From: Octopus sinensis
Lineage: Eukaryota
DNA length: 64,000 nt
Reading direction: 5' to 3'
NCBI RefSeq assembly: GCF_006345805.1
Contig: NC_043000.1
Coordinates: 157,418,001 to 157,482,000 of the forward strand
The first letter of the stretch is position 1. Each line of letters starts with the position of its first letter. The position numbers and the translations under genes were made by a program. The notes beneath the pieces are model-generated. The model made no database searches. It was not told the DNA's origin and worked only from the letters and a program-made list of their open reading frames with translations. Shown piece after piece: positions 2,056 through 56,695 of this stretch.

Positions 2056-2158
2056 ATCTTTACAGCTGTTTCAAGTATAGATGCAGAAATGGTACGTTTA
2101 CATTTAAGCAGTTGGCAGCCAACATCCTAGTGAAAATCTATTCCATCATTAGTAAAAT
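2056..2158 (-). ncRNA. Degenerate type I hammerhead ribozyme with long (73 nt) stem II
   Basis: The minus strand reads atttta-CTAATGA-tggaatagat...atctatactt-GAAAC-AGCT-GTA-aagat. The stem II base pairs (atagat/atctat) and stem III is the palindrome ACAGCTGT. CTAATGA has one mismatch to CUGANGA. Confidence 0.6.
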
Positions 2159-2195
2159 GGTGAGATGGGACCTTCGTGGGAAATGCAGATATTTA

Positions 2196-2615
2196 GGTGA
2201 AGGCGTGGCTTAGTAGTAAGAAGCTTGCTTCCCAACCACATGGTCCAGGGCTCAGTCCCACTGCATCGAACCTTTAGCAAGTATCTTCTACTATAGCGTC
2301 GAGCCTTGTGTGTGAATTTGGTAGACGGACACTGAAGAAGCCCGTCATAATATATATATATATATATATATATATATATATATATATATATAGTGTATGT
2401 TTGAGTCTGTGAAATTCCCCCAGTACCACTTCACAACTGATGTCGGCGTGTTTACGTCCCAGTAATCCAGCATTTCGGCAAAAATGACCGATAAAATAAG
2501 TACCAAGCTTAACAAAAATAAGTACTGTGGAAGATTCAATCGACTGAAAATTCTTCAAAGTCATGCCCTAGCATGACCGTAGTCTAATGACTGGAAGAAG
2601 TAAAAAGATTAAAAA
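2196..2615 (+). mobile_element. tRNA-derived SINE family A (CORE-like body, internal TA microsatellite), diverged full-length copy
   Basis: It has the A/B-box-like head gcgtggcttagtagtaag...ggctcagtccc, an internal (TA)n and the 3' end gtagtctaatgactggaagaagtaaaa. It is homologous to more than 10 other copies in the window. Confidence 0.85.
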
Positions 2616-3030
2616 GAAAGATAAGATACTAGTAGTAGTAGATATACAGAAGTGAGCGTAAAGGAAGAAAACCAGAGAATATTATGTCATAATAACAAGA
2701 CAATAAATAAAATCTCAATATGACGTTGGTTATACGTATAAAGTTCTAGAATTAAAGCAAAGTATGTGGAAAGAAATGGCCAATATAGTATGGGCAACAA
2801 AGGATGATGCTGAGATAGTGTCAAAAACATGTATACAATAGCAGGAGCATATGAGGCGAGTAATTAGAATCATTAGGTAGGTAAACTAGCCATGGGTGCA
2901 TTATGTGGCGAAGGGCCAATCAAGGTAACGTTTAAATATTCCCTCATATTTTGTCAATGTTTCAATATATAACTGCCATAATCTGATCTGATATTAGTCG
3001 CTTGGCACTGTTTGTATATTTATTCTATTA

Positions 3031-3278
3031 TACACACACACACACACACACACACACACACACACACACACACACACACACACACACACACACACATACA
3101 CACATATATATATATATACATACATATATACATATACATACATACATATATACATATACATACATGCATGCATACATGCATGCATACATGCATACGTACA
3201 TACATACATACATACATACATACATACATACATACATACATACATACGTACATACATACATAAATATATATATATACA
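3031..3278. repeat. Compound (AC)n/(TA)n/(TACA)n microsatellite
   Basis: Direct reading. Confidence 0.95.
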
Positions 3279-3459
3279 CCCACCGGTGGTTTGATTGAAA
3301 TACTGTCTATAGCTAATCTTCATTTGGCAGGTATAAAATCTCACCTTTCTTTCTAAGCTGCAGTTTAAGTTGAACTTTAGCAGCAAGTTCACATGAGCAC
3401 TAGTCGTATGTAACTATTATAGTACAAAATGAGACGTAATATTATCTGCATTATACGTC

Positions 3460-3495
3460 CGTACAAGCAGAGATACCCGGAGTTGCTCGGGATAA
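3460..3495 (-). mobile_element. Degenerate Helitron-like 3' terminus
   Basis: acaagcagagatacccggagttgctcgggat resembles the Helitron end actagcagtatcgcccggcgttgctcgggt at 25338 and 26795, including the cccg/cggg hairpin. Confidence 0.4.
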
Positions 3496-52578: not shown

Positions 52579-52625
52579 GTCTCTGATGAAGGGATACATA
52601 AATATCCCGGAAACAGCTGTGAGAC
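52579..52625 (+). ncRNA. Minimal type I hammerhead with GUG at the cleavage site
   Basis: gtct-CTGATGA-a-gggata-cataaa-tatccc-g-GAAAC-AGCT-GTG-agac. Confidence 0.75.
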
Positions 52626-53371
52626 CTCTTTATAAATGTTCTGAGATCTTGCATAACCTTGTATTTTTTTAATCTCATTTTGTTAATTTTATATATATAT
52701 ATATATATATATATATATACATATGTGTGTGTGTGTGTGTGTGTGTGTGTGTGTACATATGTATGAATGTATGTATATATGCATCCACAAACATGCATTT
52801 TCACACACAAGTATACAAATAAGTATACATATGGTTGGTGAATGAGTAAAAACAATGAAATCAGTTTCTGGTATTCTTATCTTAAGTGATCTTTTCTTTA
52901 TAATTCAGTAATATTCCACTGGGCCTCGAAAAAGTTAAGGTCAATTTGTTAACGACAAGATCATTATTTTTGTCATTTAATTATAGTTATTAGAAGTATT
53001 CCTTCTGTAAATATATTAGTGTTAATTTCCCTTTTATGCATTTACTGTTGTCCCCTATTGAAATATGTTTCTACATATTTTATTTTTTCCTTCGCCTGGT
53101 ATTTATGCCTCATTACTTTTCATTGTTCTTCTTTTCAATATTAAACTGATGTGAGTCGAGGACTGCTAGATTCAATAGAGTAGTGGACGAGAAACCTTGA
53201 ACGATTCAGTTATGGTCAATTTACTTTATAATTCTCTAGCCTCCCAACATTGACTTGGCATTCCATCCTTCCGAGGTTGGGACCAGAAATCAATAAGAAA
53301 TCTCTGCATTTTACATTTCTTAATTGTTTCCGATATTTTCCAAAAATCTTTTAACTATTTGAACTAAATAG

Positions 53372-53553
53372 TGCGGCGAGCTGGCTGAATCGTTAGCACG
53401 CAGGTAAAATGTTTAGAGGCATTTCGTCCATCACCAAGGTCGACTTTCATCCTTTCGGGATCGATAAAAGAAATACCAGTTGAACACGGATCGATGTAAT
53501 TAACTTAACGCCTCCCTCGAACTTACTGGCCTTGTTCCAAATTGTGAAGCCAA
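53372..53553 (+). mobile_element. SINE family B, diverged and deleted, with TSD
   Basis: gcggcgagctggctgaatcgttagcac...ttcatcctttcgggatcgataaa. The TSD tatttgaactaa lies at about 53356 and 53554. Confidence 0.8.
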
Positions 53554-53611
53554 TATTTGAACTAAGTAACATAATTGATGTTTGTACTTGATGGTCAATT
53601 CTAGATTATCC

Positions 53612-53790
53612 ATAAAGAAAAGATGGCTTATTTAATGCTATCATCCTTAAATGAAGGTGCGTGGGCTACCTATTAGGCCGTTGGGCTCACAATTATTTTG
53701 GGGTTGAGAGATGCGTCGTGTCCTTGGGCTAAGCACATCATTTTATGTTGCTTAAGTCTACTCAACTGGAAATTCGTACCGACCTAGTTT
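53612..53790 (+). mobile_element. Old CORE-type SINE related to family D
   Basis: gaaggtgcgtggg...tgcgtcgtgtccttgggctaagcac...ttgcttaagtctactcaactggaaa. Confidence 0.55.
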
Positions 53791-56353
53791 AACTGCAACC
53801 CTAACACATCCACGGTGTTACACTGAGTCAAGTGCGGGTGAACAGAAAAGGTGTCTATATCTATGCATCGGCCCTTAAAACAACTGGCGAGGCGTAGTAC
53901 CAGTTAGGAAATCATACTTGCCCGCGAATAAGGCTAAGCCATGCTTTAACATTTATATTTTCTACTGGCCTTTAATAATGTGCCCCTTCTTGAACACCAA
54001 ATATATCGGTCTTACCCGACTATGCCGGCTTAGAGACGAAATAATCGCTGCTAACTAATTAATAAAAAGTGTGTTCGTCCTACTGATATGCAGAATTCTA
54101 TGCAAACAGATGTTAATGAGCGACTAAATATATCTCATTGTCATCACAGTTGGTTGTCATGTTTCAGCGCCATATACTAAATAATGACGAAACGATTCAA
54201 CAAACAAAGGCCTCTGTGTGGTCGCTTATTCTGCTAGAAATAGAAACCTGCAAATAATCCTACTCCCTTAAAAAATAAGACTGAGTGGCCTCAGCTGGAA
54301 TGTCTTCGAACATGGACCTGATAGTTCAGTTGACTTTTGACTGAACAACAATAACAGATAATGATACGATAACAGCATGTGTGTAAATGTATATATTAGA
54401 CTTTTGTTGATTCTTATTTAATAGTTCATATGATCTTGCTTTTCCGGTTGTGGATCACATATCACACTCTGCAACCCTTGGTTTCCCGTCTGAGCAGGCC
54501 AGCAAACTGAAGACACAATCAAGATTGTTTTTTTAAATATTGTCTATTTTGAGAACATTAGATAAAAATCTGATCATTAGTGGGGATTAACAAACACAAA
54601 GATTTCTCGTGCAATCTGAAGAAATTTTGTACAAACAGATAAAAAAAAATCACCATATCTGTCTATCTTTACGTGTGTGTTTGTGTGTACTTGTGCGTGT
54701 GCGTATGAGAGTATGTGTGTGCCTATTTACATTTGCTTGAATGTTCATGTGTGTGCGGGAAGGTGTTTGTATAGTTTAAATAGTATGAAAATCCTTCAGA
54801 TAATCATGTGTATTAACTTTTTTAATCTTTAACGTCTGAACTTGATGCTCCCAATTACAGAACAATGTTTATTTAGATAGCATACTCATTTAAGCCAGTA
54901 TCGATTATATATATGTATATATATATATATATATATATTATATATATATATATATATATATATTATATATATATATATATATATATATAGATATATATAT
55001 ATATATATATATATATATAATATATATATATATATACATATATATATATGTATATATAGATGTAGATATTTACATATATATATATATATATATATATAAT
55101 ATATATATATATATTATACCACACACAAACATATATATAATATATACAAATATATAGATGTGTGTGAGCGATTGTTTCTGTATAAGCGTGGACGTCAATA
55201 AGTGTCTTTATATATATACGTTTGTGTGAATGTGTAGTGTTTGTAGATATAAAATTCGTATGAATTAAAACCAATATATAATATAAATAATAAAAACTAT
55301 AAATACAGACACACACAGATATATATATATATATATATATATATATATATATATATATATATATATATATATATAATATATATATATGCATACTTACACA
55401 TTAACATACATATAATTTTCTGATACACACCCGATGGTTTGTATCTATACATTTGTAATTTCAGCCATATTGTTATTTTCAGCATAAATGTATGTAAATA
55501 TATATCGATACGCTTTTGTGCTACAATTGCGTAGCATCTGATACATGTGTAAGCACAGAATACAGAGTGATAGAATCCAGACCCCTGTTTCGCTTTGTCA
55601 GTCTCAGTCCCTCAGTTAACTGCTCAGTCAATAGGGGGAAGAGAAATTCGTTTTATGTTATAACCGCTCGAATTTACAATCACTGTGTTTTTTTACAGAT
55701 TAGCACTTGAAAGACGAAGTCATCCGTCAGCTATAATATATGAAGAGAGTATTTTCAAACATTTATGGGAAAGGACTTGAAAAAATGTTGGCAGGTCGAA
55801 TTTTGTTCTCTTTTATTTAGAATTGCTGTAAAGTGGTATATAATGTGATAATGTGTACTTTCTCAGTAAAACAAAAGTCGCAACAATTTGAGCGCTATAT
55901 CCAACATTTCAAAGATGCTGATGTTCTCACCTTTGAAATACAGTACTCGTACAACGTAGTTTATTTATGATAGATTTATGGCTTCGTATTTTACTCCAGT
56001 ATAACGTTACAACATAACATTTGTTTGCACAGGATCATACATTTTTTTCCACTGAAAATCACATATTCAATAATCGTATGGCGAAACGTGCAAAAATCAT
56101 TTTTGTGTATGCATATGTAGACAGACAGACAGACGTATAGCTAGATAGATAGATAGAGAGATAGATTTCGCTTAGTCATTGCGATATTATTAATCTGTAG
56201 AAGAACTCAATATACATATGCTCTGCAAAATACAGCTTTTAGAAGCTATAATGTGATGCACAAGCATTCAACTGTTCGTGCACTATTTCATAAGAGAAAC
56301 AACTGAAGTTGATCACGTAATTCTATTCCTTGTTATATATATATATATATAAA

Positions 56354-56695
56354 TGAATTTACTTGAATATTGTACCTAACTTAGATGCACCAAAAAAACT
56401 ATACTGTTTTAACAATACTAATGTGGGGTGATTATAAGCGAGAAAGAAGCACAAGAATGGATAGGTTTTTAGTACAATCGTTTCATACAAGGACAGGCTT
56501 TATTAAAGTTGCAAAAATTACAGCATATAAACGTGTCCCGTACTCATCAGCTAAAATCCATGTGCGTTCTCTAACATCCTAGTGGTTGAGGCTATACTCA
56601 TGAAGTAATGAAGATAATTAAGTAACATAAACATAAACAGATATCCAAAGTTCATTAAAGTTCTTTAAAGCTGATGTACAGTCTTATCACAGAAT
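56354..56695 (-). mobile_element. Single-arm copy of the 48.4-kb HHR element with an intact hammerhead core (56466-56556)
   Basis: Highly similar to 48600-48920. The minus strand reads ttttag-CTGATGA-[59 nt]-GAAAC-GATT-GTA-ctaaaaa, flanked by (TA)n. Confidence 0.88.

Follow-up and report, generated by a model that had tools for sequence, protein, structure and literature searches.

The 64,000-nt stretch of the Octopus sinensis genome analysed here (contig NC_043000.1 of RefSeq assembly GCF_006345805.1, forward-strand positions 157,418,001 to 157,482,000; hereafter the window) contains a series of solo and inverted repeats with motifs of the type I hammerhead ribozyme whose stem II is greatly extended. 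An initial annotation, made from the sequence alone, had described four intact and mutually unrelated families of such motifs, which we call A, B, C and D, and had linked them to Penelope-like elements (PLEs), retroelements known to carry hammerheads. The positions and stem II spans that it gave for six loci (73, 77, 106, 60, 60 and 59 nt) were all reproduced. As far as can be judged from sequence, the motif is a real long-armed variant of the PLE-type hammerhead with putative cleavage activity, represented by one intact family (D), two good decayed cases and a weak one. The window has a G+C content of 35% and consists to 16% of simple repeats; what is said here about families refers to these 64 kb.

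An intact long-arm hammerhead family

A strict descriptor for type I hammerheads that allowed a stem II of up to 200 nt gave three matches in the window, and all of them belong to family D. In 200 dinucleotide shuffles the same descriptor matched 0.04 times on average and at most once, so that the motif is indeed in excess over shuffled sequence, as it should be if the initial annotation was right. A looser descriptor recovered the three family D copies against 0.2 matches expected (20 shuffles). The CUGANGA, GAAA and NUH boxes are intact in all three full copies, and three helices surround the core, which is open at stem I: a stem I of 6-7 bp, a stem II base of 7 pairs, and a stem III that forms either 2 bp or, between two molecules, an 8-bp homoduplex. 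The literal layout of the initial annotation (CUGANGA, GAAAC and GUA in this order) thus holds for family D, which accounts for three of the six listed loci, and fails for A, B and C, whose cores are damaged.

Pairing at the stem II base of D stands out against 1500 random partners (0.006 and 0.001). As a natural control, we considered 126 listed prokaryote and viral loci that have both boxes 50-80 nt apart; none of them had stems I and II of at least 4 bp, while by the same measure each of the three D copies has a stem I of 6-7 and a stem II of 7. The family D pattern also occurred at 13 loci in metagenome contigs, none with a stem III or BLAST similarity, and the 3' pattern of D was found neither in viral nor in prokaryote contigs.

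The D1 motif and its twin are the two arms of a single inverted repeat and are 99.5% identical, so the three copies represent only two independent insertions. In D1, cleavage is predicted after position 48797 (GUA). A (TA)n tract is reached about 40 nt past the cut site of the D1 twin, and the element containing D2 (approximately 56350-56695, about 345 bp) is flanked by (TA)n tracts on both sides.

The 5' strand of stem I in D (48712-48725, plus strand; 56544-56556, minus strand) consists of a run of U that ends in AG immediately ahead of the core, and resembles a 3' splice site. In the Drosophila virilis Penelope element, the end of an intron maps to helix I (PMC4209133). By analogy, splicing could switch the D ribozyme off, although a matching 5' site is not established. 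An intron inside stem II of D was ruled out, since the D1 arm contains no AG.

Table 1. Hammerhead motifs and associated features in the window.
Feature	Positions	Strand	Stem II span (nt)	Description
A	2056-2158	-	73	Decayed long-stem motif; G5 changed to A, extra base before the core; weakest case
B	4211-4316	+	77	Decayed long-stem motif; three core changes (A9, A13, A15.1); perfect 5-bp stem I; strong stem II base
C, long arm	47730-47862	-	106	Intact 5' box; G12 changed to A; U-U at first stem I pair; 11 pairs at stem II base
C, inverted twin	47880-48121	+		5'-truncated; 79% identity; intact 3' box (47924-47935), without 5' box
D1	48712-48804	+	60 (48726-48785)	Intact type I motif; stem I of 7 bp; self-complementary stem III
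D1, inverted twin	48430-48520	-	60	Intact motif inside head-to-head repeat 48399-48834
D2	56467-56556	-	59	Intact core; G-U in the palindrome
E	29209-29400	+		Distantly related to D (61% identity in non-core columns); 3' core box at 29266-29277; preceded by a short inverted twin and followed by the tail
F	49850-49947	-		81% identical to D, 5'-truncated; retains the 3' core box and the distal hairpin of stem II
Tail	48839-48918	+		Optional 3' extension of about 80 nt; on D1, D2 and E; not on D1 twin, F and E twin
H	42353-42395	-	14	Short-stem hammerhead motif with one core change, in head-to-head repeat 42194-42667
H twin	42466-42508	+		Second damaged short-stem copy, read from the sequence

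The nature of the long arm

The initial annotation had treated the sequence between the two strands of the stem II base as an unstructured insert, which the predicted folds contradict. The 60-nt stem II region of D folds as a single bulged hairpin with about 21 pairs, and the corresponding regions of B and C likewise fold from the base upward, continuing stem II as a bulged hairpin. Compared with shuffles, the D1 region reached a z score of -2.0, the only region to do so. According to these models, stem II is a long arm and not a large loop.

The hammerhead core requires only the base of stem II, and large stem II extensions are tolerated by the core, as is known from engineered ribozymes. Because only the base is needed, the arm is most likely tolerated rather than required, and this is our default reading. 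Since the arm displaces the usual loop 2, the rate-enhancing contact between loop 1 and loop 2 is probably missing or replaced. For hammerhead stems, wide variation has been reported, mostly toward a short stem II (Perreault 2011, PMC3088659).

The main alternative, much less likely and given limited weight here, is that the arm has been selected, either as a binding or folding platform for a PLE protein or a host factor, or for making a distal contact to an extended stem I in place of the one between loops 1 and 2. Long arms recur in four motifs unrelated in sequence, and the distal hairpin is retained in F despite only 81% identity. Selection would also fit the hammerhead of the anole element PAc, which cuts only together with its protein; however, the binding site proposed for that protein lies downstream of the ribozyme, and insertion in vitro did not depend on cleavage (PMC11167929). 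Neither the length of the arm (59-106 nt) nor its sequence is common to the four motifs, which leaves the regulatory or protein-binding platform suggested in the initial annotation unsupported, and a short-stem family (H) coexists in the same window. An extended stem I is suggested for D2 (fraction 0.03). The corresponding values for D1 (0.50), A (0.35), B (0.17) and C (0.35) lend it no support, and it was rejected as a shared feature.

Three damaged long-arm motifs

With one core change in A, three in B and one in C, none of these motifs has a full set of intact boxes. A and B are single loci and C is one inverted pair within the window, so the term family is not justified for any of them, and of the four intact families originally described one remains. 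The absence of sequence similarity among the four motifs, on the other hand, was confirmed by BLAST (at E<0.01, none of the four matched another).

These lesions, with one locus each in the window, raise the question of whether D is the sole genuine family. A, B and C would then have arisen from unconnected boxes that pair by chance, or would be remains of short-stem hammerheads matched with the wrong partner. The inner alternative helix of C, with a span of 30-33 nt, would fit such a view. Motifs as good as A, or as good as B, each appeared in 1 of 150 shuffles, under thresholds that were fixed after the loci had been seen. Against 1500 random partners, however, the stem II base of B was never equalled (0/1500) and that of C reached 0.002. 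The perfect stem I of B speaks against a chance pairing, and the intact boxes of C are divided between the two arms of a PLE-type inverted repeat, where the 3' strand of the twin would form four stem I pairs with the 5' strand of the long arm. It therefore seems improbable that D stands by itself. We read A, B and C as dead copies whose stems are paired above chance, clearly in B and C and weakly in A; a chance origin is unlikely.

A microsatellite begins about 50 nt downstream of B. The arm of A (2073-2145, minus strand) has an 11-base word in common with positions 48686-48696 (plus strand) upstream of the D core; BLAST shows no wider similarity, and the match is possibly due to chance.

Probable Penelope-like context

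Two relatives of family D, E and F, are both truncated inside the long arm. Their 3' boxes are identical to that of D1 at 8 of 8 positions, compared with 80% (F) and 61% (E) in the other columns. The stem III palindrome varies, with a G-C pair in D1, G-U in D2 and A-U in E and F. The 3' strand of stem I in E differs from that of D. D-type copies end in two ways: three stop some 40 nt past the cut site, while the other three continue for about 80 nt more.

Adjacent inverted and 5'-truncated twins are present at D1, C, E and H, and were not seen at A, B, D2 and F. The insertion anatomy described for PLEs comprises truncated twins in inverted orientation, a tail that may be absent, and microsatellites as targets (PMC8557442, PMC3846280, PMC11167929). 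The copies in the window match it in their inverted truncated twins, their two alternative 3' ends and their (TA)n flanks. Family D and this anatomy together support the initial assignment of a type I motif with palindromic stem III and long stem II to a Penelope-like context. On balance we think it probable, with some room for doubt, that the loci are 3' stubs of several unrelated PLEs, or of non-autonomous derivatives, with a type I hammerhead whose stem II has grown into a long, tolerated arm.

Several observations weigh against this interpretation. At A, pairing of the stem II base does not differ significantly from random partners (0.11). The first stem II pair in D is G-U, where G-C is usual. 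Whole-motif folding energies in the window are no better than those of shuffles (z from -1.2 to +0.8). No two-sided changes in stems I and II are seen among the D copies; this is because the full copies from the two insertions are nearly the same (about 95% identity) and the 5' strands are missing from F and E. The tail has about 80 nt, where 30-40 nt have been published. Finally, the proposed link to PLE reading frames did not materialize: among 300 of 395 selected reading frames of the window, Pfam gave no match to a reverse transcriptase (RT) or GIY-YIG domain, and the few weak matches lay below the curated cut-offs. The connection to PLEs is consequently drawn from anatomy. An absent PLE reading frame is expected for 5'-truncated stubs.

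The short-stem hammerhead H lies in the same window, so long arms are not the sole form in this genome. It gave one descriptor match against 0.05 expected (20 shuffles), and its stem III is of the same kind as in the long-arm motifs. H may also have an extended stem I.

Four other local inverted repeats (at 16162, 38395, 60682 and 62651) contained no hammerhead, either by descriptor or by eye. The last of these regions (62651-63066) consists of two copies of an abundant repeat resembling short interspersed nuclear elements, forming an 84% inverted pair. Two short reading frames are unrelated to the hammerheads. One (56808-57266, plus strand) resembles what we take to be a decayed long interspersed nuclear element (LINE) with a CR1/L2-type C-terminus; the other (9823-10044, minus strand) looks like a decayed LINE fragment and has a weak match to DUF6451.

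Comparison with known hammerheads

The closest counterparts are the hammerheads in the pseudo-long terminal repeats of metazoan PLEs, especially the variants with a small palindromic helix III, which have the same type I topology, a short stem I and a palindromic stem III that lends itself to dimer formation (Cervera and de la Pena 2014, PMC4209133). In the window, stem III and loop 3 are of this minimal palindromic type in A, B, C, D1, E and F, and D2 deviates by one G-U. Metazoan PLE hammerheads are also described as mostly solo or as opposite-strand pairs 100-700 bp apart, as they are here (PMC4209133). The difference lies in stem II: the published descriptor is limited to stems of 3-7 bp and loops II of 3-10 nt, and by our own count the longest span among 56 aligned examples is about 23 nt (PMC4209133), whereas the spans in the window are 59-106 nt. 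The arm of the intact family D is thus two to three times as long as in the published animal examples, and those of A, B and C are longer still.

Searches limited to short loops would thus miss these motifs, as the initial annotation had anticipated. Rfam gave no hammerhead match at E<=10 over C, D1 and H in a local search, and none among 150 of the 234 matches listed for the whole window, most of which were microsatellite-driven microRNA matches. As H is short-stemmed but damaged and was missed as well, the Rfam result by itself does not isolate an effect of arm length.

Hydra-clade PLEs insert into (TA)n and occur in octopus (Craig et al. 2021, PMC8557442, File S2). An extra base on each side of stem II is frequent in their hammerheads, and A-D and H can be read in the same way, but the Hydra spans are about 25 nt or less, and the listed Hydra-1_oBim motif matches no motif of the window by eye (PMC8557442). 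Longer arms are found in the spike-moss Selaginella, where the stem II of PLE-X1_sMoe and PLE-X1_sTam extends over about 53 and 48 nt and the motifs are marked as deviating (PMC8557442 File S2). Unlike the animal loci studied here, these are plant elements without endonuclease that target 28S genes (PMC8557442). A long stem II in a PLE hammerhead therefore already has a precedent, and together with the 14-nt span of H this argues against the lineage-defining architecture that was initially proposed. The mammalian discontinuous Clec2 hammerhead is of type III, with the interruption in stem I. It sits in the 3' untranslated region of an mRNA and not in a retroelement, and is another natural motif that tolerates a very long interruption (PMC6765202). 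In the literature searched (Lunse et al. 2017, Arkhipova et al. 2017, Repbase and Dfam lay outside the search), we found no report of long-stem II hammerheads in animal PLEs or of spans of 60-106 nt.

Non-LTR (long terminal repeat) retrozymes share with the window motifs the type I topology, a 2-bp stem III with a tetraloop and a non-coding unit of about 300 bp, and have been proposed to derive from PLEs; they differ in forming tandem arrays, usually with loop 1-loop 2 contacts, where the window copies are solo or head-to-head and long-armed (PMC7229834; bioRxiv 10.64898/2026.07.22.740005). The descriptors of Craig et al. were looser, with 7-17 nt between boxes, and half cores at 35-50 nt were recorded as well (PMC8557442). 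It is very improbable that our loci are retrozyme monomers, or the "missing" hammerheads of Naiad PLEs overlooked for their long spacing: Naiads do target (TA)n and make inverted twins and tails, eight of them have half cores 35-50 nt apart (PMC8557442), and the D2 element has the size of a retrozyme monomer, but the window has dispersed or inverted copies and no tandem ones, two complete octopus Naiad 3' ends are unlike the window motifs by eye, and an exact-match search of the published consensus files for Naiad, Chlamys and Hydra, which did find its positive control, returned none of 16 3'-box palindromes and five other motifs of the window, although line breaks can hide matches in such a search.

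At about 150 nt from their termini, the 3' ends of Naiad_Obim and Naiad_Ovul have a paired and conserved region in which GAAAC lies upstream of CUGAUGA (PMC8557442 File S5). This region does not look like a type I hammerhead with a long stem II and could belong to a different structured RNA.

Proposed mechanism

The base pairs of stem I and of the stem II base in D1 have a predicted probability of about 0.9, while the complete monomer fold has a probability of 1.6e-6, because alternative pairing of the core wins. The stem III segment is predicted to be far more stable as a homoduplex (-10.0 kcal/mol) than as a hairpin (+2.4). Both the energies of stem III and the rarity of the monomer fold are compatible with the dimer model of PLE hammerheads, which are described as acting in dimers and as cleaving weakly in vitro (PMC4209133; review PMC6765202). 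In RNA of the parent element, stems I and II would form readily and the 2-bp stem III would fail to close within one molecule. Two tandem copies could then join through their self-complementary stem III segments, forming a helix of 8 bp, upon which each copy would cut after GUA, slowly, helped by dimerisation or by a protein of the element. Cutting may even require that this protein is bound, as reported for PAc.

The copies in the window are mostly inert relics, considering that A, B and C have core lesions and that head-to-head twins sit on opposite strands. From such an arrangement, read-through RNA would fold back on itself and not dimerise.

Implications for Penelope-like elements

Whether a PLE is scored as carrying a hammerhead depends on searches with a loop II of up to about 10 nt or a box spacing of 17-50 nt (PMC4209133, PMC8557442). 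With an arm of 60 nt on an intact motif that was copied recently, it is evident that counts based on such searches can be too low. Should the arm be no more than tolerated, the finding would be a footnote to the known association of PLEs with hammerheads. The arm also offers a way to ask whether the periphery of a ribozyme serves the retrotransposition complex. As a bolder and rather doubtful proposition, long-armed hammerheads with a stem II of 60-106 nt might be an architecture that several PLE lineages of this animal group have in many copies and under selection, and that published descriptors have missed, and the arm might dock the RT-endonuclease or an extended stem I, tying RNA cleavage to the assembly of the ribonucleoprotein. 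If this were true, PLE families scored as ribozyme-less would need to be searched again.

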